Sequence record: NC_047749.1
DNA length: 64,000 bases
Direction: 5' to 3' (one strand)
Source: Escherichia phage DT571/2
This document shows positions 3,318-19,748 of the stretch, piece after piece. Made by a program: the position numbers and the translations under genes. Numbering within the stretch: position 1 is the stretch's first letter; each line of letters begins with the position of its first letter. The notes below the pieces were generated by a model. That model had not been told where the DNA came from. It searched no databases and was given only the letters and a program-made list of their open reading frames with translations.

Positions 3318-3710
3318 ATGGAACAAGTATATTGGCGTCAGATTGATCCTAGTTTGGTGAAGAGTGCGGAGAAGCTGCTACAACGTTGGTTGGGGGTAAG
3401 ACAAGCCTCCTTCACTTTTCCGGAGCAGCAAATAGACGATCCCTGTGTTGGTGTTTTCCTATCAGGCTACGCTAGGGAAGTGGAATTGGATTGGAATGAA
3501 TTGTCTGCTATGGGTTTAATTGTTGCACTAAATTTCTCTTTGTTCCATCCACGTGGGTTGGCAATATGTCGTGTGCCTGATGACGGTTGTTCGCCCCATC
3601 TTTTACAGGTGGAAGATGATATTTGGGAGTACCCTCCAGATATTCTCAAAGAAGCTAAAGAACAATTAAATCGTGTTGGGATTTATGTTCCAGGCCTGAA
3701 TGATGAATGA
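3318..3710 (+). CDS. Hypothetical protein, paralog B (130 aa)
   Basis: Tandem paralog of 2880-3308 (same motif block and same C-terminal PGL ending). Confidence 0.5.
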   Translation: MEQVYWRQIDPSLVKSAEKLLQRWLGVRQASFTFPEQQIDDPCVGVFLSGYAREVELDWNELSAMGLIVALNFSLFHPRGLAICRVPDDGCSPHLLQVEDDIWEYPPDILKEAKEQLNRVGIYVPGLNDE

Positions 3711-4424: not shown

Positions 4425-7214
4425 GTGTTTTCTATCCTCCAAGGTCACGCCGGGTTTTCTCGTGATTTAGCAACAGGTATTTGGCGAGAAATCAAAGCGG
4501 GAGATTATACCTTTGCCAAGCGATTCTCGAAAGAGCATCCAGAAGGTAAACCAGCTTCTATGCCCTTCAAATTTGATGTAATAGAAGAGCACGACCCACA
4601 AAGCCTTGCAGAAATGTTACCACTTATGAGACGTTTAACGTCTGACCCTCATATCGTTGCGGTACGAGGTCGATGTCTTGCACCTAAAAATAATGTGCGA
4701 CGTAAGAAAGATAACTTTAATGTATCTAATCCTAGTAATATTATTGCTATGGACGTGGATGGTATCCTAGATACCGGTGGGTACGACAAATTTAATCTTG
4801 TTGGTATGGCCCGCCACATTATTAAGATGTTGAATAGTATTAGTGAGGATATGTTTCCTCTTGATGCAGGCTTTATAGCTCATGCATCATCTTCGGCTGG
4901 GCTAAAACCAGGTATCCGAATGCACTTAATACTAGAATCTAACGTCAAGGTAACTCAGGGTCAGCTAAAGTTCTTATTTACATCTATCAATGATAGTAGT
5001 AAGCAAAAATTTGGTTTTGATATTGCCGACCTAGCTTATTACTCATCTGTCCAGCTCCACTATTTTGCCGACCCCTTATTTAGCGATGGTATTGTTGATC
5101 CGTTTAAAGCGGAGAGTAAGCCACGTCTGGTGTATGTTAAAGGCTCAAAAGTAAACTTACCTAATAATCTAGTTGACTATGAAACAACTAGAGGAGAGTT
5201 TAAAGAGGAATTCTACTCTTTACTCGATCAAATTAAAGGCAAAAAGATTGCTTCTGATAAAGTAGAAGAAACCATCAGCGAGTTAGAAGAGGCTGATGAT
5301 GGAGTGTACTTGCGTATTATCCCCAAACTATACCATAGAGCATTAGAGGATGGTGTTGATTTTGAATGGCTAGAACGTGAGATTAAACCAGCTTTATCTG
5401 AATATATTGCAACTAAAGATAACAGTCGTAATATTCAAGATTACTTTAATAACGGTCGCAAGCAGGCTCTCAAAGCGTTTGTTAATAATTCTAAACGTGA
5501 GATTCCACCAAATCTGAAAGGTGTTCCACTTAAGAAATTAGAAGTGGATTCTCCACCAGAAGTTCCGTACCTGAAGATTAACATTGTGCCCCCAAAAGGT
5601 CATATAACATTTGTTAAGGCAAGTCTTGGTACGGGTAAAACTACGGCAGTAACTAAATGGCTGGACGCAGGTGTTCTTCCGGGCAACTTTTTAGCAGTTA
5701 CAAATACTAGAGCACTGGTATCTTCAAATGCCAAGAAATTTAGTGCAGGACAATACGATAAGTCTGTAGATATGCTCAACTTTAAACGTGGGGCTATTGA
5801 TCGTATGTCCACAACTATTCACTCTTTGCATAAGTTCAAAAGTTTTATTGGGCAAATAGACACCATTTTTATTGATGAATGTGACGCTGTAATGAATGAC
5901 CTATTATTCGCCCCTGTTGTTAAACAACGTCGCGAGTGTATTCAAGTTCTACGTGACATCCTCATGACAGCTAAGACTGTAATCTTATCCGATGGTGATA
6001 TTAGTGCGGAAACAATTGAAGCATATGGTTCTTTGATTGAGTTCGATAAACCAGTTGCATTTTACAATCACCACCGTAAAATGTTATCAAAGGCTCATGC
6101 TTATGAATTCCCTGATGAATCCAGTATTTGGGTTGCACTTCAGACTTCTCTAGAGATGGGTGAGAAATCTATTCTAGTATCTGATTGTGGTCCTGATGAG
6201 CTGAATGAGAAGGGTATGGCACTACGTCGTAATACTGGTGCATTAGTTAAAGAAATCCATTCAAACTCCACTTCAGATGTGGATATTCGACGTATTCTGG
6301 ATTATACAACTAATGAGCTAATTGATCAACAAATTGATTGCTTATTATGTAGTCCATCCGTAACGAGTGGAGTTGACTTTAACTATTTTGATAACGTATT
6401 TGTTATTACTAGAACCAGTAATCAGGCGCCAAACATGCGTTTTCAAGCAATCAGGCGCGACCGTGGTGCTCAGAATATCTATTATTTTATTGATAAATCC
6501 ACTAGTGGATTCTCTGCGGGTTCTGAACAATATAATATCGATGAAGGTTGGCTGGAGTTAGCACAGCAATTATATGCACGTCGCAGGGAGCTGGAGTCTA
6601 GGAACTATACTAGTACTTTACGTTATTACTTGCTTGATCAGGGTGCAACTATTGATATTTTCAGTGAAAGCTGGGGAACTATTGAAGGTGCTGGTAAAGA
6701 ATACACAGAAGAGCGAATCAAAGCTATTCTACATTCAACTCCTGATTATTGTGCTCCACGTCATGCGGATGCGTATGAGGCTAAACTACTTATTGTTCGC
6801 TATTATCATCTTGAGTCTATTAAAGATGTAACAGTTGAGCATGTTGAACAATATATCAAAGATAAGCCGAATGATCGAGCTGCATTCTTCCATAAGATGC
6901 ACGAGATGTTCTGGGAAGATATTAAGAAGTGTTCAAATGTGACCATTAAACCATTCATAGAAGCTCTGAAAGGTAAGAAGAAAGATTTCTTCCTTAAAAC
7001 AGGTCAGAGTGCTAACCCAAAATATGCTAGAATGTATCTTGGTATGATGGGTATTGGTAAAGATATGAACACGGAGAATATCGTAGACTGGTATAGAACC
7101 TACTGCAAAATCGAATGTATGCCAATCCCTCTCAAATTCATGACTGAAGAAGAGAAGGCTATGGCAGAAGAAGCAATGTCAGAACTAGGTGCTAGAAATG
7201 ACAGTGAAGAATAA
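4425..7214 (+). CDS. 929-aa Walker A/B ATPase-helicase, putative replication initiator/origin-binding-type protein
   Basis: GTG start with SD acaggag 7 nt upstream; Walker A SLGTGKTT and Walker B FIDECD in the C-terminal half; N-terminal half has DVDG (DxD) and GIRMH motifs compatible with a primase-polymerase-like domain. Confidence 0.6.
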   Translation: MFSILQGHAGFSRDLATGIWREIKAGDYTFAKRFSKEHPEGKPASMPFKFDVIEEHDPQSLAEMLPLMRRLTSDPHIVAVRGRCLAPKNNVRRKKDNFNVSNPSNIIAMDVDGILDTGGYDKFNLVGMARHIIKMLNSISEDMFPLDAGFIAHASSSAGLKPGIRMHLILESNVKVTQGQLKFLFTSINDSSKQKFGFDIADLAYYSSVQLHYFADPLFSDGIVDPFKAESKPRLVYVKGSKVNLPNNLVDYETTRGEFKEEFYSLLDQIKGKKIASDKVEETISELEEADDGVYLRIIPKLYHRALEDGVDFEWLEREIKPALSEYIATKDNSRNIQDYFNNGRKQALKAFVNNSKREIPPNLKGVPLKKLEVDSPPEVPYLKINIVPPKGHITFVKASLGTGKTTAVTKWLDAGVLPGNFLAVTNTRALVSSNAKKFSAGQYDKSVDMLNFKRGAIDRMSTTIHSLHKFKSFIGQIDTIFIDECDAVMNDLLFAPVVKQRRECIQVLRDILMTAKTVILSDGDISAETIEAYGSLIEFDKPVAFYNHHRKMLSKAHAYEFPDESSIWVALQTSLEMGEKSILVSDCGPDELNEKGMALRRNTGALVKEIHSNSTSDVDIRRILDYTTNELIDQQIDCLLCSPSVTSGVDFNYFDNVFVITRTSNQAPNMRFQAIRRDRGAQNIYYFIDKSTSGFSAGSEQYNIDEGWLELAQQLYARRRELESRNYTSTLRYYLLDQGATIDIFSESWGTIEGAGKEYTEERIKAILHSTPDYCAPRHADAYEAKLLIVRYYHLESIKDVTVEHVEQYIKDKPNDRAAFFHKMHEMFWEDIKKCSNVTIKPFIEALKGKKKDFFLKTGQSANPKYARMYLGMMGIGKDMNTENIVDWYRTYCKIECMPIPLKFMTEEEKAMAEEAMSELGARNDSEE

Positions 7215-7500: not shown

Positions 7501-8205
7501 ATGGCTGGTTCTCGCAGAAAGAAACATATCCATGAAATCCCGGATGAAGTCTTTAAAAAAGTTATAGAGCATCTGGAGAACGGTGGTACTAAGAAAGCAG
7601 CATGTGAGATGCTCGGCGTATCATCCAATCCGACTATGGAAAGGATGATAGAAGAGTGGCAAGATCGCCAAATTCAAGTTGCCGAGATGAAGAAAAAGAA
7701 ACGTGGTACACTCATTGAAGGCATCGAGTTAGCTAACGTTATTGAACAGTATTTATCCGGTGATTCTTTTGAAGAGATTGCCGATCGTAATTATCGCTCT
7801 GTAGCAATGGTTAAATCTGTTCTGGAACGATATGGTGCTCTACTTCGTTTGAACGATATTGTAGACCCGTTGAATCCACCAATTATTCCTGATGATGCTG
7901 TAGCAGAAGAATTTGAAGTAGGTGAGCTAGTTTGGGTTCCTGGATACCAGTGTATCGGTGAAATCAAAAAAGCAATGGATAACCCTGTTGGTTGTTACCG
8001 TGTATGGCTTCTATCAGAAGGCAAACAACAGAATGTTCATTATATGAATTATGAATTAGCTTCTGTAAAGCATTTAGAAAAGCTAGGGGTTGACGTAAAA
8101 TCTCTGGGGTATAAATGGTCCCGGGAAGAAGTTATCACACTGATTAACGAAGCTGTTAAGGCTGCCTTGAAACTTGATAAAGAAAAAGGAAAACGCCGTG
8201 AGTAA
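7501..8205 (+). CDS. Putative DNA-binding transcription regulator with two HTH motifs
   Basis: HTH-like GTKKAACEMLGVS, and SFEEIADRNYRSVAMVKSVLERYG resembling sigma70 region-4 helices; immediately downstream of a strong promoter. Confidence 0.5.
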   Translation: MAGSRRKKHIHEIPDEVFKKVIEHLENGGTKKAACEMLGVSSNPTMERMIEEWQDRQIQVAEMKKKKRGTLIEGIELANVIEQYLSGDSFEEIADRNYRSVAMVKSVLERYGALLRLNDIVDPLNPPIIPDDAVAEEFEVGELVWVPGYQCIGEIKKAMDNPVGCYRVWLLSEGKQQNVHYMNYELASVKHLEKLGVDVKSLGYKWSREEVITLINEAVKAALKLDKEKGKRRE

Positions 8206-8449
8206 ACTAACTGATTTGCTTAAAGATGGGGAAGTAAAAACACTATATCGTAGAAGCTGGGATAACGATAATAACGGCTTAGTGTTACTAACTTTAGATG
8301 CTGACTCGGATGTAGCTACTCAACATACCTGGGTAGCGGGCAACTATCCATATAGCGAAGTTGTTTCATTAACAGTATGCGAAGCTGTTGCAGACGATTG
8401 GGAGATTGCCAGCATTGATGATATGCTCGCTGTTGGCCTGGTGGAGTAA
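8198..8449 (+). CDS. Hypothetical protein (~84 aa)
   Basis: GTG 8198 with SD aagga 7 nt upstream, in the same frame as track ORF 8174-8449. Confidence 0.4.
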   Translation: MSKLTDLLKDGEVKTLYRRSWDNDNNGLVLLTLDADSDVATQHTWVAGNYPYSEVVSLTVCEAVADDWEIASIDDMLAVGLVE

Positions 8450-8466
8450 CTACTTAAAAATTTCAG

Positions 8467-8495
8467 TTGCTTAATCCTACAATTCTTGATATAAT
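8467..8495 (+). promoter_or_regulatory. T5-type sigma70 promoter
   Basis: ttgctt 8467-8472, 17-bp spacer, tataat 8490-8495. Confidence 0.6.
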
Positions 8496-8552
8496 ATTCT
8501 CATAGTTTGAAAGAACTATTCTGTTTAATTCTTAATTAAGGAAATATAAAAT

Positions 8553-8963
8553 ATGACTACTCCAACTCAGTGGACTGATGAACTGTTCGAAAAAATGTCT
8601 TCCGAATACGTTGCTCGTATGGAGCAATTCCCAGAGGATGAACGTCCGAGTGTTAGCATGGAAATTGTTAGTGAAATTGCCCAGGAAAATGGTGTAACTC
8701 CGAACGGTTTTCGTATGAAGCTGACTAAAGCAGGTTTGTATATTAAGAAAGCTGCTGGCTCTGCTTCTAAATCTAGTGCATCTACTGGAGAAAAAGCTTC
8801 CGGTGGTTCTCGTACCTCCAAAGCCCAGGCTCATGCCGACCTTCGTTCAGCGTTCTCTGATGCTGGCTTAGCACCAGATTTTCTGGATGATGCAATTATC
8901 GACAAACTGACCGGTAAAGCGGCTGCTCATCTGGCAGAAGCAATCCGAGCTATCACTAAGTAA
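8553..8963 (+). CDS. Hypothetical protein (136 aa), Ala/Ser-rich C-terminal half
   Basis: RBS taaggaaatataaaat-ATG; no catalytic motifs. Confidence 0.5.
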   Translation: MTTPTQWTDELFEKMSSEYVARMEQFPEDERPSVSMEIVSEIAQENGVTPNGFRMKLTKAGLYIKKAAGSASKSSASTGEKASGGSRTSKAQAHADLRSAFSDAGLAPDFLDDAIIDKLTGKAAAHLAEAIRAITK

Positions 8964-8977
8964 TAGGGAGATTATAC

Positions 8978-9265
8978 ATGAATAAACAAGAAATTATCTC
9001 CGCATGTGAAGCCCATAATGAGTTCTACCTTCATTATGAGAAACTACGCCAAAAGGGTACTACATACCTTCAGGGTACTATGGATTTTTCTGATAAGTAC
9101 CTAAGTAAACGTTTTGCTCAGGAGCGTATCCGTCAACCAAAAGATGACGAAATTCTAGTGTTTAGTCGCACTAATGACAGCTTCCGATTTATTCCTGTTG
9201 CGAAAGTTCGTCGCATTACGAGCCTTCAGTCAGAGTTAGATCGTGCTTCTCCAGTAGGCCGATAA
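8978..9265 (+). CDS. Hypothetical protein (95 aa)
   Basis: RBS gggagattatac-ATG; followed by terminator. Confidence 0.45.
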   Translation: MNKQEIISACEAHNEFYLHYEKLRQKGTTYLQGTMDFSDKYLSKRFAQERIRQPKDDEILVFSRTNDSFRFIPVAKVRRITSLQSELDRASPVGR

Positions 9266-9275
9266 GAAACCAATT

Positions 9276-9300
9276 AGCCCCTATATGGGGCTTTTTGTGT
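9276..9300 (+). terminator. Rho-independent terminator
   Basis: Stem agcccc/ggggct, loop tatat, followed by ttttt. Confidence 0.6.
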
Positions 9301-9315
9301 ATTTGAGAAACGTAA

Positions 9316-9624
9316 ATGAGCGATCAGGTAAACCAAAACTATGAAGGACACGTTGATGATCAGTCAATCCTTCTATGGGAAAGAGAAGGGGAACAAATAA
9401 GATTGACAGTATCTGAATTTCGTGGGAATCTATACATGGGAATTAGGTATTGGCTCCAGGATATTACTGGAGAATGGTTTCCAACGAAATCCGGCTTCTC
9501 TTTTCCGTACACTCTAGAAACTACTTCACAGCTATTCTATGCTTTTACGCAAATCCTTAGTGAATCTGAGGTTTTACATGAAGTACAGAAACGAGCTGAA
9601 GAACTCAAAGCCAAGAATGCCTAG
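9316..9624 (+). CDS. Hypothetical protein (102 aa)
   Basis: ORF with downstream terminator; no motifs. Confidence 0.45.
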   Translation: MSDQVNQNYEGHVDDQSILLWEREGEQIRLTVSEFRGNLYMGIRYWLQDITGEWFPTKSGFSFPYTLETTSQLFYAFTQILSESEVLHEVQKRAEELKAKNA

Positions 9625-9640
9625 TTCTTGGCTTTTTCTT
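9611..9640 (+). terminator. Rho-independent terminator
   Basis: Stem gccaagaa/ttcttggc followed by tttttcttt. Confidence 0.6.
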
Positions 9641-9651
9641 TATAAATGTAT

Positions 9652-9680
9652 TTGCTTTCAACTCAGTTTTGTTATATAAT
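9652..9680 (+). promoter_or_regulatory. T5-type sigma70 promoter
   Basis: ttgctt 9652-9657, 17-bp spacer, tataat 9675-9680, leader atttatataaattaatgagagg. Confidence 0.65.
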
Positions 9681-9694
9681 ATTTATATAAATTA

Positions 9695-9910
9695 ATGAGA
9701 GGATCAATCATGGCAATGACAATAACACTTCCCAAGATTCAAGCAAAACTTAATCTACTTTCCACAGCACGCATTAATTATCAAGATAACATAGGCACAG
9801 TAAATCAAAAGGCGTACAAAGATGCGTTTCTGAAAGAATCTGCTGATTTGATGGATATGGTTACACAATATAATAAAGAACTCAAGATGGAAATCGCCGA
9901 TGATGACTAA
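9695..9910 (+). CDS. Hypothetical protein (71 aa)
   Basis: RBS gagagga; ATGA overlap with ligase subunit A start. Confidence 0.45.
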   Translation: MRGSIMAMTITLPKIQAKLNLLSTARINYQDNIGTVNQKAYKDAFLKESADLMDMVTQYNKELKMEIADDD

Positions 9911-10874
9911 TGTAAAAGAATTTATTAAACGCTGTCAAGAAGCATATTATCAAGGCATGTCTTTAATCTCTGATGAAGAATATGATCGCCTGGTAAAACG
10001 CTTCCCGTTAGAGGAAGAGATCGGGCCTAAGGGTGATATTCCACATCTATACCGTATGTATTCTTTACAGAAAGTTTATTATAATCGTGGAGATAAACCC
10101 CCATTTAACCCGTTAGGTCAAGTAGAAACTGATAAGTTAGATGGTTGTGCAATTTCCCTGCTATATATTAATGGCGAATTTGTTCAAGCACTAACTCGTG
10201 GTAATGGTATTCTGGGAAATGATGTCACAAGCAACGTAAGATTGCTGAACATCCCTAAAAAGATTTCTCAAAAAGTACCTACTCAAATCACTGGTGAAGT
10301 TCTAATTACAAAAGAAGTAGAAAATAAACGTAACTTTGCCTCTGGTGCTATTAACCTCAAAGATAGTGATGATTTCGTACAGCGTATCGGGGAAGGTGGT
10401 TTAATCTTCGTTGCATACGGTATCCAGTGTTCTGCTGAATCTGTAGGTATTACAGAAGCGTATTTAAAAGATATGCTTTGGCTAGAGAATGAGAACTTCT
10501 TAACAGTTGTTAATGTACGTTCCTTCTTTAAATGGATTCCAACGGACGGTAAAGTTGTTCGTATTAATGATAACAACAAATTCTTCCGTGAAGGCTGGAC
10601 TAATAAATTTCCTCGCGGTGCATTTGCTATTAAAGAGGATGAAGAAGGTGAGACTACAACTCTTACTAAAGTTGAATGGAATGTAGGGGCTTCTGGTAAA
10701 GTAACTCCAGTCGGTTATTTTGAACCAGTAATTATTGATGATGCTACAATTGTTAAAGCGACTCTTAATAACGTTGATTATATTAACTCTCTCGATCTAG
10801 AGATCGGTTGCCAGATTCGAGTGATTCGTGCTGGTGGTGTAATCCCGTGCATAGTAGAACGAGTATACGATTAA
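9900..10874 (+). CDS. NAD-dependent DNA ligase, N-terminal subunit (adenylation + OB domains)
   Basis: LigA-like N-terminus (ISDEEYDRL), adenylation lysine motif KLDGCA, OB-fold-like C-terminus; no Zn-finger, HhH or BRCT. Confidence 0.75.
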   Translation: MMTNVKEFIKRCQEAYYQGMSLISDEEYDRLVKRFPLEEEIGPKGDIPHLYRMYSLQKVYYNRGDKPPFNPLGQVETDKLDGCAISLLYINGEFVQALTRGNGILGNDVTSNVRLLNIPKKISQKVPTQITGEVLITKEVENKRNFASGAINLKDSDDFVQRIGEGGLIFVAYGIQCSAESVGITEAYLKDMLWLENENFLTVVNVRSFFKWIPTDGKVVRINDNNKFFREGWTNKFPRGAFAIKEDEEGETTTLTKVEWNVGASGKVTPVGYFEPVIIDDATIVKATLNNVDYINSLDLEIGCQIRVIRAGGVIPCIVERVYD

Positions 10875-10924
10875 TACATAACCCTTTGCTACCCATTTAC
10901 CATATCGGAATTATAAAGTGGTTA

Positions 10925-10953
10925 TTGACATTTTCGCCGCTTAGGTATATACT
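10925..10953 (+). promoter_or_regulatory. Consensus-like sigma70 promoter inside the ligase A/B spacer
   Basis: -35 ttgaca 10925-10930, 17-bp spacer, -10 tatact 10948-10953. Confidence 0.5.
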
Positions 10954-11017
10954 ATTATCATTCAGTTGAGGGATAGAAAGTTATGGCGAGGGTAAGCAAA
11001 GTTAGTTAAAATTGTAG

Positions 11018-11046
11018 TTGCTAAATGCTTAAATACTTGCTATAAT
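11018..11046 (+). promoter_or_regulatory. T5-type sigma70 promoter with extended -10
   Basis: ttgcta 11018-11023, 17-bp spacer, TGc-tataat 11038-11046, leader atttatataaattgataagga. Confidence 0.65.
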
Positions 11047-11073
11047 ATTTATATAAATTGATAAGGAAGAAAT

Positions 11074-11856
11074 TTGATGAAAATCGAAATTCCAACACAA
11101 TGTCCCTCTTGTGGTTCTAAGCTAGATCTTGTCAACGGACAATTATTCTGTCGTAATAAGTCCAACTGTCCAGCGCAATCAAGTAAGTTAATTGAGAACT
11201 TCTGTACAAAAATGAAGTTAAAGGGCTTTGGCCCGAAAACTATTGAGAAGCTGGAGCTGACGAAGATTTCAGAACTATTTTACCTAACCGAAGAAGATTT
11301 GGTTAGAGCCGTGGGTAGCAAGGTTGCCGCTAAGTTAATTAGCGAATTAAATACTAAAGTTCGCGGAGACATTGACTTTGGTTCAGTTCTCGGTTCTTTA
11401 GGAATCCCTCTAATTGGAGAGGTTGCAGCAAAGAAATTATCCCAAAATTGCACTAGCTTCCACGATGTGAAGGCTGACGGCAAGGCTGGAGAAAACTATA
11501 AAGCCTGGCTAAATTCCCCACAAGGCAAGGATGTTATCGAATTACCGTGGAAATTCTCAAATGGTATTAAAGGTGCTAAAGCTGACATCATCATTACAGA
11601 TGAATTAGTTGCCCCGCCAAATGGAATCACGGTGTGTATTACCGGATCTTTGCAAGATTTTGCAAATCGAACGGATGCAACAAACTATCTAGAAGGTCTA
11701 GGGTATACTGTTAAAAAATCAGTTACCAAAGACGTTAAATACCTCATCTGTGAGGATGAATCTAAGCGTTCTTCCTCATCTTATAAGAAAGCCGAAACGA
11801 ATGGGATAGAAATCCTGTCGATTAAAGAACTATTGGAGAAAAATAATAATGTCTAA
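11074..11856 (+). CDS. NAD-dependent DNA ligase, C-terminal subunit (Zn-finger, HhH, BRCT-like)
   Basis: Begins with Cys4 zinc finger CPSCGSKLD...CRNKSNC typical of LigA; Gly-rich helix-hairpin-helix-like segments; BRCT-like C-terminus (ITGSL...). Confidence 0.7.
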   Translation: MMKIEIPTQCPSCGSKLDLVNGQLFCRNKSNCPAQSSKLIENFCTKMKLKGFGPKTIEKLELTKISELFYLTEEDLVRAVGSKVAAKLISELNTKVRGDIDFGSVLGSLGIPLIGEVAAKKLSQNCTSFHDVKADGKAGENYKAWLNSPQGKDVIELPWKFSNGIKGAKADIIITDELVAPPNGITVCITGSLQDFANRTDATNYLEGLGYTVKKSVTKDVKYLICEDESKRSSSSYKKAETNGIEILSIKELLEKNNNV

Positions 11857-12616
11857 ACTGAACTGGAACGTAGAAGGTGTAACCGAGTCTCTGAAAGCAA
11901 AAGCCACTGCTCTGGGTGTTGCTGTAATCTCTCAAGAACAAGTAGCTGCTATCGCTGCTGAACTGGCTGCTGAAACTGGCAAAGACGTTACCGCTCGCTC
12001 TGTTGGCTCTAAGCTGCGTAAAGAAGGTTTCGAAGTACAGAAAGCTAACGAAGTACAGAAATCCCCGTGGACTCCTGAGCAGGAAGCTGAACTGGTTGAT
12101 TTCCTGAACTCTCATGCTGGTCAGTATACTTATGCTGAAATCGCTGCTGCTGTAGCTGGTGGTCAGTTCGGTGCTAAACAGGTACAGGGTAAGATCCTGA
12201 GTCTGGAAATGACCGCTTCTGTTAAACCAACTGAAAAAGCTGCTGCTGTTCGTTCCTTCACTCCGGATGAAGAAACTGATTTTGTTAATCAGGTTGTTGC
12301 TGGTGCTACTATTGAAGCTATCGCTGCCCACTTCGGTCGCAATATTAAGCAGATCCGTGGTAAAGCTCTGAGTCTGCTTCGTGAAGGTCGTATCGCTGCT
12401 ATGCCGGTACAGGAAACTTCAAGTGCTAAAACTCGTGAAGATCTGCTAGAAGGTCTGGATCTGGCTAACATGACTGTTGCTGAGATCGCTGAGAAAACTG
12501 GTAAGTCTGAGCGCGGTGTTAAATCTATGCTGTCTCGTCGTGGTCTGGTTGCTAAGGACTATGATGGTGCCGCTAAGCGTGCTAAACTGGATGCAAAAGC
12601 TGCGGCTGCTGAATAA
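11849..12616 (+). CDS. Abundant early DNA-binding-type protein built from ~4 tandem HTH-like repeats (possibly the T5 D5 equivalent)
   Basis: Four ~30-aa repeats of the form hxxIAxxxGxxxxxVxxKxL (e.g. VAEIAEKTGKSERGVKSMLSRRG); strongly biased GCT/GTT/CGT/CTG codon use typical of highly expressed genes; terminator directly downstream. Confidence 0.55.
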   Translation: MSKLNWNVEGVTESLKAKATALGVAVISQEQVAAIAAELAAETGKDVTARSVGSKLRKEGFEVQKANEVQKSPWTPEQEAELVDFLNSHAGQYTYAEIAAAVAGGQFGAKQVQGKILSLEMTASVKPTEKAAAVRSFTPDEETDFVNQVVAGATIEAIAAHFGRNIKQIRGKALSLLREGRIAAMPVQETSSAKTREDLLEGLDLANMTVAEIAEKTGKSERGVKSMLSRRGLVAKDYDGAAKRAKLDAKAAAAE

Positions 12617-12634
12617 TCTGGTAAATTAAACCTA

Positions 12635-12666
12635 AGGGGAGGGGGCTATGCTCCTTCCCCTTTTTG
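12635..12666 (+). terminator. Rho-independent terminator
   Basis: GC-rich hairpin aggggaggggg...ctccttcccc followed by ttttt. Confidence 0.6.
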
Positions 12667-12698
12667 CATTTAGAAGGCACGAAAGCGTGCAAAGGAGA

Positions 12699-14171
12699 AT
12701 GACCTTGTTTAACGTGCAAGCTGTAGTGTTGAAGATGCTTCTAGCTTCAGAACAGAAGCAAATAGCATTGGAAACATTCTCAAAACTGCATAAAGATCAT
12801 TTTAATGACGCTTTCTCCTCAATTTACCAAGCCGTCCAGAATTATTATAAAAAGTATAACACAATGCCGTCCATTGACGCACTGATGCTTGAGGCTAATA
12901 GGAACGCCCGCCTTTCTCAAGCTCTAGTCGTTTTAGCTAACACTCAAATTCCAGAAGTTAGCATGGAACAGGCACTTGAAGTCCTAGAGGCCGAGTATAC
13001 ACAGGATTTATTCCTGAAGCTTCTAGAAACAGACGTGCTTCAAGATTTAACAATGCTGGATCAGGGAGAAATTCTTAACCGAGTTGCCTCCCTTCACTTA
13101 AAATTAGAAGAGAAAGTAACGAATACTGGAAAAGTATTCAACGCAGATAACATGCGTATTTTCCAGAGAGAAGAAGATACCAAACTGAACTTAATCGCTC
13201 TTGGTATTTGTAATGAGTTCGACGCTCAAATTGGTTTAGCTCGCACAGAAACGTTACTGCTTGGTGGTTGGCGTGGTACTGGTAAATCCATTATCTGTTC
13301 AAACATACAGGTTCAGCAATATTTGAATGGAGATATTGCTCCATACTTCTCAATTGAGATGAAAGAACATGAAGTATTTAGACGTAATCTAGCTATGTTA
13401 GCTGGTGTATCAGCACTAGCAATGCGTAATAATACTCTAGAAGGTGCAGCTCTGTTGAGATTAGCCAGAACTAGAGCTAGGATGTTTAACGGTGGTGAAG
13501 AGCTTTTCGATAACTTCGTTAAACAGTATACAATGGCTAAGATGTGTGATTTCTACGATATGGAAAGTAAGCTAATAGAAGGGTATGAGCTACATACTCC
13601 TATGATTATTGTTTATGATCCTGAGCTGTCTATTACAACAGTTGACGTAGAATTAAATAAATTAGTTGCTAGATACGGGGATAAAGTTACAGTAGCTTTA
13701 CTAGACTATATTAACCAAACCCGACTTCCAGACTCTAAAACCATTGATATGTATGACTGGAAAGAACAGATGGTTGTTAGCTCGTCTTTCAAATCTATCT
13801 GCCAGAAACATAACGTGGCTGGTGTAGCTCCTTACCAGATCGATCAAGATGGTAGAACACGTATGTCGAAGGGGATTCTTGATTCCGCAGACATGGCTGC
13901 TAATCTTAATGCTGCAAAAGCTGATAATGGTCAAGGTGCTATTATGTTTGACTTCGTTAAGACTCGGTCTTCTGATAGCGTGAAGTTTATGCCTAAAATG
14001 AACTGGGAAACCCTGCGGATGGATAACACTACCAACCTAGCAATGGAAGATATATCTCAAATGGAAGCTGAGTTCGTTATCCCTATTGAGAAGGATAAGC
14101 CGGCTCAATCCAAACGTGCTAAGAAAGACAAAGCTGAAAATTCAACAGGTGAACAGGCCAGCGATATATGA
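12699..14171 (+). CDS. DnaB-like replicative helicase
   Basis: Walker A LLLGGWRGTGKS in the C-terminal RecA-like half; precedes the primase with an ATGA overlap. Start uncertain: track ORF begins at 12648 inside the terminator hairpin, so the ATG at 12699 or TTG at 12705 after SD aaggaga is more plausible. Confidence 0.6.
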   Translation: MTLFNVQAVVLKMLLASEQKQIALETFSKLHKDHFNDAFSSIYQAVQNYYKKYNTMPSIDALMLEANRNARLSQALVVLANTQIPEVSMEQALEVLEAEYTQDLFLKLLETDVLQDLTMLDQGEILNRVASLHLKLEEKVTNTGKVFNADNMRIFQREEDTKLNLIALGICNEFDAQIGLARTETLLLGGWRGTGKSIICSNIQVQQYLNGDIAPYFSIEMKEHEVFRRNLAMLAGVSALAMRNNTLEGAALLRLARTRARMFNGGEELFDNFVKQYTMAKMCDFYDMESKLIEGYELHTPMIIVYDPELSITTVDVELNKLVARYGDKVTVALLDYINQTRLPDSKTIDMYDWKEQMVVSSSFKSICQKHNVAGVAPYQIDQDGRTRMSKGILDSADMAANLNAAKADNGQGAIMFDFVKTRSSDSVKFMPKMNWETLRMDNTTNLAMEDISQMEAEFVIPIEKDKPAQSKRAKKDKAENSTGEQASDI

Positions 14172-19527: not shown

Positions 19528-19539
19528 ATGATGTATAAT
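19511..19539 (+). promoter_or_regulatory. T5-type sigma70 promoter
   Basis: ttggca 19511-19516, 17-bp spacer, tataat 19534-19539, leader atatacataaatttgagagag. Confidence 0.65.
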
Positions 19540-19610
19540 ATATACATAAATTTGAGAGAGAAAGTTTCGGATTGATAAGAAAGTCCGAAGCAGAAAAATA
19601 AAAATTTTAG

Positions 19611-19640
19611 TTGCTAAATTCTCTCGAAATCTAGTATAAT
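19611..19640 (+). promoter_or_regulatory. T5-type sigma70 promoter (second of a tandem pair)
   Basis: ttgcta 19611-19616, 18-bp spacer, tataat 19635-19640, leader atatacataaattcgaggag. Confidence 0.6.
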
Positions 19641-19748
19641 ATATACATAAATTCGAGGAGAAAACAAAAAATTAAATTCTTCGATTATGAAAAGCTATAC
19701 TTACTAGCTAGAGGAAATTCCGACCTAATTATTAAGCTATTCAAAAGA

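Follow-up and report, generated by a model that had tools for sequence, protein, structure and literature searches.

The window that we analysed is a 64,000 nt stretch of DNA from Escherichia phage DT571/2 (NC_047749.1), a T5-like phage, and exhibits 99.1% identity to Escherichia phage DT57C. Two plus-strand ORFs of this window, which are annotated as ligA and ligB in DT57C, form a real but ordinary locus, namely the already known and annotated ligA/ligB NAD-dependent DNA ligase of T5-like phages. In a nucleotide comparison, 427 phage records covered at least 80% of the region.

Upstream of the ligase genes, a terminator-like hairpin (9607-9635) precedes a promoter-like site that was recovered by a regular-expression scan (TTGCTT-17-TATAAT; 9652..9680, plus strand). 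The sequence of this site also lies inside the promoter feature that is annotated directly upstream of ligA in the RefSeq record of T5 (NC_005859). It is followed by a 71-aa hypothetical ORF (9695..9910, plus strand), whose 3′ end overlaps the start of ligA and which is probably co-transcribed with ligA; a Pfam search with this ORF returned no match. The ligA gene (9903..10874, plus strand) encodes the 323-aa ligase subunit A, or 324 aa if translation begins at the ATG at 9900. A 202 bp gap (10875..11076, plus strand) separates it from ligB (11077..11856, plus strand), which encodes the 259-aa ligase subunit B. The end of ligB overlaps by 8 nt (ATGTCTAA, including the ligB stop codon) the gene for the D5 DNA-binding protein (11849..12616, plus strand). 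The ligB-D5 unit is closed by a strong intrinsic-terminator-like hairpin with 13 pairs, eight of them G-C, and a T tract (12634..12662, plus strand).

The original prediction, made from the sequence alone, had assigned the adenylation and OB domains (with a KLDG motif) to the first ORF and the zinc-finger, HhH and BRCT-type domains to the second, and this division was borne out by Pfam searches and by alignment to E. coli LigA. Specifically, subunit A comprises domain Ia, a nucleotidyltransferase (NTase) domain and an OB domain, with Pfam matches to DNA_ligase_aden (PF01653; 83.5 bits, cut-off 27) and, after the NTase, to DNA_ligase_OB at residues 252-322 (PF03120; 77.7 bits, cut-off 32.9). 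The protein belongs to PHROG 3359 and also corresponds to positions 9-381 of phrog_3869, a full-length ligase profile of 656 positions. The KLDG motif occupies residues 78-81, of which K78 is the adenylylated lysine of motif I, and residues R99, E132, D215/G216 and K244 align to E. coli R136, E173, D285/G286 and K314 (motifs III, IV and V). The aligned motif III-V residues, together with K78, D80 and G81, are invariant among 46 homologues of subunit A. Five residues of domain Ia in the E. coli enzyme (Y22, H23, D32, Y35 and D36) were reportedly identified by Sriskanda and Shuman in 2002 as essential for NMN binding and thus for NAD+ specificity. Four of the five are kept in subunit A, where Y16, D24, Y27 and D28 align to Y22, D32, Y35 and D36, and the position of H23 is occupied by Q17. 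Across the same 46 homologues Y15 and Y27 never vary, and Y16 and D28 hardly do.

Subunit B contains a Cys4 zinc finger, an HhH region and a BRCT domain, the last of which is preceded by a variable, low-confidence linker (residues 164-179). The BRCT domain is recognized by Pfam (PF00533; 35.4 bits, cut-off 21.3), and the HhH matches fall under their curated cut-off (24.4 versus 27). An AF2 model of subunit B superposes on the Zn/HhH part of E. coli LigA (PDB 2OWO) and of other structures. The four zinc-finger cysteines C9, C12, C25 and C31, which align to E. coli C408, C411, C426 and C432, are invariant among 37 homologues, and the protein as a whole corresponds to positions 388-654 of phrog_3869.

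Taken together, the two subunits are collinear with E. coli LigA at 33% identity, and alignment to this bacterial enzyme, as the original prediction had proposed, fixes the break point on the E. coli scale. Subunit A aligns to residues 1-393 and subunit B from about 394-403 to 671, such that the break falls in the linker that joins the OB domain to the zinc finger, ahead of the first zinc-finger cysteine at E. coli C408. The phage proteins share with the bacterial enzyme the domain order Ia-NTase-OB-Zn-HhH-BRCT, the motif I lysine, motifs III-V and the Cys4 finger. In contrast to the single 671-aa chain of E. coli, however, these domains are distributed over two ORFs of 323 and 259 aa, and the A half is approximately 70 aa shorter than its E. 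coli counterpart, with deletions after domain Ia and inside the NTase. This two-chain state is the defining feature of the T5-type ligase variant, whose other characteristics are likewise present: a break that separates the OB domain from the zinc finger, and adjacent genes on the same strand in the order A, B and D5.

The ORF boundaries that had been proposed, 9900-10874 and 11074-11856, correspond to ORFs that exist, but both starts require adjustment. For ligA, the second ATG, at 9903, is the start in T5 and in most homologues. For ligB, a mechanical ORF call places the start at a TTG codon (11074), but the ATG at 11077 is the likelier start, because a Shine-Dalgarno-like AAGGAAG (11063..11069, plus strand) ends 7 nt before this ATG, the T5 and PR1 records use the same start, and the aligned part of chain 9hu3_B of the PR1 ligase structure begins with MKIQ at its residue 1. 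The AAGGAAG element is largely conserved in an alignment of relatives.

The gap between the genes carries two putative early promoters in tandem, as had been predicted. P-K28b (TTGACA-17-TATACT; 10925..10953, plus strand) matches the consensus at 11 of 12 positions and would initiate transcription near 10960, and P-K28a (TTGCTA-17-TATAAT with an extended -10 TG; 11018..11046, plus strand) matches at 10 of 12 and would initiate near 11053. These are the top two plus-strand promoter-like sites in a scanned region of 4.6 kb. The total number of promoter-like sites in this region is not above chance (10 found, 10.7 expected), and support for the promoters therefore rests on their position, on the invariance of their hexamers and on their naming in T5. 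Specifically, the two sites are placed in the only sizeable non-coding gap of the scanned region. Their hexamers are unchanged in relatives whose gap identity is just 63-74%, and are kept from Escherichia to Providencia and Vibrio T5-like phages, with equivalents of both sites in the Vibrio phages VCPH, Thalassa and Rocket24. In an eight-phage comparison, the -35 hexamer of P-K28b is invariant, as are positions 1-4 and 6 of its -10 hexamer, and TTG-N-TATAATATT is invariant in P-K28a. Furthermore, the promoters are not new, since the T5 RefSeq record NC_005859 already names both of them (P-K 28b and P-K 28a), and its promoter features at 3367-3441 and 3460-3534 (numbering of the compared T5 piece) span the two sites. 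Initiation at both sites in vivo would be expected from this annotation together with T5 promoter work reportedly carried out in the Bujard laboratory.

The original prediction further held that the C-terminal half of the ligase is transcribed independently, which is too strong. A consensus scan detected no terminator in the gaps of the window, Eos, PR1 and Kpn13-P2. Because no terminator-like site lies between ligA and the gap promoters, ligB is probably reached also by read-through from the promoter upstream of ligA, with the gap promoters adding transcription of ligB-D5, for which D5 is the final gene. Transcription of ligB from the gap would thus be additional rather than exclusive. The degree of read-through is uncertain, since the PR1 depositors annotate a terminator after ligA that the consensus scan of PR1 does not detect. 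A small ORF after P-K28b (MARVSKVS, behind a GAGGGA motif) was considered and rejected, as the peptide is not conserved in the Klebsiella, Eos and PR1 relatives when the alignment is inspected by eye. The conserved TTGAGGGA is better interpreted as initial transcribed sequence of a kind that T5 early promoters typically have.

The division of the ligase into two genes is not confined to DT571/2. It was found in every Demerecviridae record sampled, with A and B co-occurring in each genome, whereas the sampled phages outside this family carry a one-piece LigA. The same arrangement recurs across genera at 47-71% protein identity. The best 120 homologues of subunit A are all stand-alone proteins of 240-337 aa (the 240-aa one being a partial sequence), and the best 120 homologues of subunit B are likewise all stand-alone at 190-263 aa (the two shortest being truncated or partial); among these matches to either half there were no fused close relatives. 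Two phages that matched the A half only, Erwinia pEa_SNUABM_18 and Alcaligenes Afa-NA1, proved not to be split, and carry single genes of approximately 646-648 aa with divergent C-termini. A close known counterpart is T5 itself, where, in line with the original prediction, subunits A and B are annotated (T5.116 and T5.117). The genes are 96-97% identical in nucleotide sequence to those of T5, which shares the P-K 28b/P-K 28a promoters, the D5 overlap and the gene order; the window differs in having, after the upstream promoter and ahead of ligA, the additional 71-aa ORF, which is unannotated in T5. Compared with its counterparts in T5, oldekolle and PK8, the gap shows 99.5% identity, more than the flanking coding DNA (86-97%). 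Synteny of ligB and D5 is retained in T5, PR1 and the Klebsiella and Vibrio relatives. Demerecviridae ranging from Escherichia to Vibrio phages share both the split and the module of tandem promoters, ligB and D5.

The assembly of the two polypeptides had been called not evident from sequence, a statement that is now out of date. Two PDB entries (9HU3 and 9I5I, released in January and February 2026) are titled ‘PR1 phage heterodimeric DNA ligase in complex with 21-mer nicked DNA’, and the aligned parts of their chains are identical to the ligA and ligB products of Providencia phage vB_PreS_PR1. A physical complex of A and B on nicked DNA is thus known for PR1 from the entry titles, and NAD+-dependent nick sealing by this homologue is implied solely by the title. 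Subunits A and B match chains 9hu3_A (E = 5.9e-103) and 9hu3_B (E = 1.7e-79), respectively. The PR1 chains are also the best structural matches of both AF2 models, with approximately 53% Foldseek-aligned identity in each case (subunit A: pLDDT 87, TM 0.85 to 9hu3_A; subunit B: pLDDT 83, top matches 9hu3_B and 9hu3_F). PR1 shares with DT571/2 the two-gene layout, the break point, the domain content, a downstream D5-like gene and a gap with tandem promoter-like sites. It differs in genus (Priunavirus versus Tequintavirus), in the length of the gap (192 bp versus 202 bp) and in its proteins, with subunit A approximately 10 aa longer and subunit B approximately 10 aa shorter, and with a shorter variable linker before the BRCT domain. 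A full-text literature search found no publication describing 9HU3 or 9I5I and mentions of subunits A and B just at the level of genome announcements; a search for ‘K28a’ returned unrelated point mutants only. The two-gene ligase is a long-standing annotation in T5-like genomes, its gap promoters have names in the T5 record and the homologous heterodimer is in the PDB, so our analysis adds little. For the engineering of split or inducible ligases, naturally split ones nevertheless hold some practical interest.

We are highly confident that the locus encodes a natural two-subunit NAD+-dependent ligase of the Demerecviridae, acting as a non-covalent heterodimer, with tandem early promoters in the gap between its genes. 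None of the observations speaks against this reading. A LigA-type gene would have been cut in two where the OB domain is linked to the zinc finger. On the basis of homology to the PR1 proteins, the DT571/2 subunits are likewise predicted to form a heterodimer. By analogy with LigA biochemistry, from which the catalytic steps are taken, subunit A (Ia-NTase-OB) should be adenylylated by NAD+ on its catalytic lysine, and subunit B (Zn-HhH-BRCT) would contribute the remaining half of the clamp with which LigA encircles a nick. A first early unit would run from the promoter near 9652 through the 71-aa ORF and have ligA at its end. Subsequently, ligB and D5 would be served by read-through plus extra transcription from both gap promoters as far as the terminator at 12634, and B may be made in excess over A.

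Two other explanations would have the halves belong to a single polypeptide. The two ORFs lie next to each other on one strand, are read in different frames and are collinear with LigA, as would be seen if a sequencing frameshift or a recent pseudogenizing insertion had broken one ligA gene, but conservation already refutes such an artefact or decay, to which we assign virtually no probability. The arrangement recurs in the 427 records, which were sequenced independently, and in different genera, both halves retain their invariant catalytic and zinc residues, ligB has its own Shine-Dalgarno element and ATG, the homologue was solved as two chains, and the 202 bp gap contains at least five stop codons in each frame. 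Rejoining into one polypeptide at the RNA or protein level, whether by a self-splicing intron, by an intein or by a translational bypass of the T4 gene 60 kind, has an equally negligible chance. Introns and homing endonucleases do occur in T-even and T5-like phages, and in T5, though not in DT57C, an HNH endonuclease gene separates D6 from the primase gene some 2.3 kb downstream of ligB. However, a search of 10700-11250 against Rfam at E values up to 1 found neither an intron nor any other family, and the gap folds no better than shuffled sequences (z-score -0.62). These results and the stop codons in all frames argue against both a frameshift artefact and an intron, two of the findings that the original prediction had named as evidence against a split ligase. 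There is also no intein-like sequence, because the two halves together make up all of LigA and the aligned halves hold no protein beyond it. Moreover, the gap is filled by two conserved promoters, Vibrio relatives carry up to three whole genes between the halves, and the aligned part of the PR1 chain B starts at its residue 1 with the ATG-encoded MKIQ.

It is also conceivable, if very improbable, that A alone is the working ligase and that B, produced alongside D5, serves chiefly as a DNA-binding protein or BRCT scaffold in its own right, its likeness to the LigA C-terminus being incidental. The gene for B overlaps, and would be co-transcribed with, D5 rather than A, and lies behind two strong predicted promoters. 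Minimal ligases without such domains exist, among them the Chlorella virus ligase and Lig E. In opposition to this uncoupling, the PDB titles describe a heterodimeric ligase on nicked DNA with both chains present, and every Demerecviridae genome sampled has both A and B. Furthermore, in LigA deletion work reportedly described by Timson and Wigley in 1999 and by Wang, Nair and Shuman in 2008, fragments consisting of NTase and OB still adenylylate themselves but seal nicks efficiently only with the Zn/HhH module.

In addition to the heterodimer and its promoters, the comparison flagged a variable insertion site between the ligA stop codon and P-K28b. In Salmonella phage SP3 this slot is occupied by a GIY-YIG ORF and in VCPH by a single ORF; Thalassa and Rocket24 have three ORFs there, one of them DprA-like. 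The pattern of occupancy hints that a homing-endonuclease-type insertion may have created the split, as in the nrdA gene of Aeromonas phage Aeh1. ‘Genes in pieces’ are familiar in T4-like phages, where nrdA of Aeh1 is split by mobE and the T4 topoisomerase genes 39/60 provide another case. The resemblance to those systems, drawn as an analogy only, is that an essential enzyme is broken at a domain boundary, with neighbouring genes encoding pieces that come together again, and that the slot between the pieces can hold a free-standing homing endonuclease, such as the SP3 GIY-YIG ORF. In contrast, the split is a fixed trait of the whole T5 family, most members of which have promoters in the gap rather than an endonuclease. 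Only tentatively, and with the odds against it, we suggest that the split is an ancient regulatory rearrangement that was retained because it set tandem strong early promoters before ligB-D5. Subunit B, made in excess, might then have a second job, for instance in binding nicks of the phage itself or in acting together with D5, and the slot might be a family-wide landing pad for mobile or accessory genes. An extra 274 bp of DNA in oldekolle, phC11 and phA11 had at first been suspected to lie in the gap, but in oldekolle it corresponds to an additional ORF upstream of ligA.

The ligase region of the window is 99.1% identical to that of Escherichia phage DT57C (Tequintavirus), whose annotation lists ligA ("D4; NAD-dependent DNA ligase subunit A"), ligB and then D5, dnaB, the primase gene and pol. 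ORF listing and sequence agree on a + strand ORF at 9900-10874 (ligA) that encodes 324 amino acids, or 323 if the second ATG (9903) is used. Pfam places an NAD-dependent ligase adenylation domain (83.5 bits) and an OB domain (77.7 bits) in this ORF, and a BRCT domain (35.4 bits) together with helix-hairpin-helix (HhH) matches under the cut-off in a second ORF on the same strand (ligB; 11074-11856 by ORF listing). Furthermore, the two ORFs tile a single 656-position PHROGs profile of a full-length NAD-dependent ligase (positions 9-381 and 388-654, respectively), and thus amount to one complete ligase. These results confirm the original observation of a ligase whose domains are divided between two ORFs, and support its interpretation after the small corrections described below.

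To place the break, subunits A and B were joined and aligned with the E. coli K-12 LigA encoded in NC_000913. The proteins are collinear (33% identity), with A terminating opposite E. coli residue 393, the end of the OB domain, and B starting opposite about residues 394-403. The first Cys of B pairs with C408, and all four zinc-finger Cys residues are retained. Subunit A carries the predicted KLDG sequence (motif I, K78), the TRGNG arginine, the motif III glutamate, motif IV (DG) and the motif V lysine; none of these varies among 46 homologues (47-98% identity). Five residues of the N-terminal Ia domain of LigA are required for reaction with NAD+, and four of the five are present in A. The first 52 residues of B contain 20 of its 44 invariant columns, which is consistent with a functionally critical module comprising the zinc finger and first HhH; this module may contact A.

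A sequencing artefact such as a frameshift, an intron or a bypass element could each make two ORFs of a single gene. However, the 202 bp between the genes (10875-11076) contain at least five stops in every frame, and ligB lies in a different frame from ligA. No Rfam match was obtained for 10700-11250 at E values up to 1, and the gap folds no better than its shuffles (z = -0.62). Moreover, ligB has its own initiation signals, with AAGGAAG seven bases ahead of ATG 11077. These findings rule out all three explanations, and the split into two ORFs stands. The same ATG is the ligB start in the T5 and Providencia phage vB_PreS_PR1 records, and the aligned part of the homologous PDB chain B opens with MKIQ at residue 1. 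Because of this evidence and the AAGGAAG spacing, the mechanically called TTG at 11074, which the original prediction adopted, is probably not the true start.

Assembly of the two polypeptides, thought not to be evident from sequence, has been answered experimentally for a family member. A PDB sequence search matched A (E = 5.9e-103) and B (E = 1.7e-79) to 9HU3 and 9I5I, whose chains are named "DNA ligase (NAD(+))" and "DNA ligase subunit B". The aligned parts of these chains match PR1 ligA and ligB exactly, PR1 being the source of this heterodimeric ligase, and are 53% identical to A and B of the window. They are also the best PDB matches of the AF2 models (pLDDT 87.3 for A and 82.8 for B). 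The entries, whose titles describe the PR1 heterodimeric ligase with a 21-mer nicked DNA, were released on 2026-01-14 and 2026-02-18, the later under a title ending "... (random sequence)"; a literature search did not find an associated paper.

The split is conserved in the family, as had been supposed. When the concatenated A and B protein was used in tblastn and rows were sampled across the ranking, every sampled Demerecviridae row gave two pieces: Tequintavirus, Epseptimavirus-like Salmonella phages, Klebsiella phages (~71%), Eos, PR1 (53%) and Vibrio phages (47-50%), with the Rocket24 matches in two separate places. Clostridium phage c-st and jumbo phages gave one piece. Two records matching the A half only were considered as further split ligases, and each proved to be a single gene of about 646-648 amino acids. 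In a phage collection, 427 records span 80% or more of the region, and the majority annotate two ligase genes, in agreement with the expectation that T5 annotations list both subunits. In a search of 5.8 billion proteins, the best 120 matches of A (240-337 amino acids) and of B (190-263 amino acids) included no fused close relative; partial or truncated entries account for the three shortest. NCBI lists near-identical T5-type ligase halves under the species names Enterococcus faecalis (99%, partial) and Brucella melitensis (97%), probably through phage contamination of assemblies. The T5-type two-gene ligase, with its fixed split, is already known; B might be made in excess, and the split might stem from a mobile element.

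Both promoters predicted in the spacer have matching sites, at 10925-10953 (TTGACA-17-TATACT) and 11018-11046 (TTGCTA-17-TATAAT with an extended -10 TG). These are the top two + strand sigma-70-like sites of 8400-13000, but such sites occur there at chance level, so a consensus match by itself proves nothing. Support for the candidate promoters comes instead from the T5 reference record, which annotates "promoter P-K 28b" and "promoter P-K 28a" in exactly this gap, and from conservation. The gap is 99.5% identical to that of T5, whereas the flanking coding DNA is 86-97% identical. Eight aligned phages, among them Klebsiella, Eos and PR1 relatives with gap identities of 63-74%, show no variation in the -35 TTGAC, the -10 positions or TTG-N-TATAATATT. 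An equivalent pair, about 95-100 bp apart, lies directly 5′ of ligB in the Vibrio Demerecviridae VCPH, Thalassa and Rocket24. P-K28a and P-K28b are among the classical strong T5 early promoters that the Bujard laboratory characterised. A 19 nt segment comprising the -10 and initially transcribed region, TATAATATTTATATAAATT, has exact copies at 9675-9693 (5′ of ligA) and 11041-11059 (P-K28a) and near copies at 19534-19552, 19635-19653, 3825 and 42130 (six matches versus 0.23 expected). The copies at 19534 and 19635, 101 bp apart, suggest a second tandem promoter pair.

The transcription unit would run from a terminator-like hairpin (9607-9635) through a promoter-like site matching the promoter feature 5′ of T5 ligA (9652-9680), a 71-amino-acid ORF overlapping the ligA start (9695-9910), ligA, the two gap promoters, ligB and D5 to a 13-pair hairpin with a T tract (12634-12662). 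Given this layout, and because the gap yielded no terminator-like site in a consensus scan, its promoters would serve ligB additionally rather than exclusively. The proposal that the C-terminal half is independently transcribed is therefore retained for the two promoters but not for exclusivity, and expression of ligB-D5 should exceed that of ligA. The 71-amino-acid ORF has no Pfam match. DT57C annotates it (similar to SPC35_0106) and T5 does not, its promoter running straight into ligA; phage oldekolle has an additional 90-amino-acid ORF in this position. The ligB stop and D5 start overlap by 8 nt (11849-11856, ATGTCTAA), which suggests translational coupling. T5 shares this overlap, whereas 4-6 nt separate the two genes in PR1 and the Vibrio phages. 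The DT57C dnaB/D6 start (ATG 12648) falls in the loop of the strong terminator-like hairpin after D5, and the D6 annotation of T5 is shorter by 15 nt. Translation may in fact begin further downstream, for example at ATG 12699 or TTG 12705 after AAAGGAGA. T5 carries an HNH endonuclease gene (hegJ, P-TflX; 6615-7148 of the T5 locus) between D6 and the primase gene, whereas in DT57C (locus position 7669), and hence in the window, dnaB runs straight into the primase gene.

The slot from the ligA stop to the first promoter, about 50 bp in the window and T5, is a variable insertion site across Demerecviridae, since the Vibrio phages hold one to three extra ORFs there: one in VCPH (L005 2466-2708) and three, including one DprA-like, in Thalassa (L004 2469-3672) and Rocket24 (L007 5969-7187). 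Their products match phrog_7775 (unknown function) and the DprA-like phrog_768, and one ORF has no match. Salmonella phage SP3 (MG387042) and one other phage carry a 213-amino-acid GIY-YIG ORF (Pfam E = 1.1e-5; L003 1965-2606 in SP3). In SP3 it lies directly 3′ of ligA, with its start overlapping the ligA stop, and takes the place of the first ~42 bp of the spacer, ahead of P-K28b. By tblastn it occurs in only these two phages (three records); the SP3 copy is at the ligase locus, and that of vB_Sen_SG_WM_RUS_R2 falls under a ligase annotation. The ORF resembles a free-standing homing endonuclease. GenBank's SP3 record misnames it 'ligase subunit A' and calls D5 'portal vertex protein', and the phage STWB21 record names ligB 'tail completion protein'.
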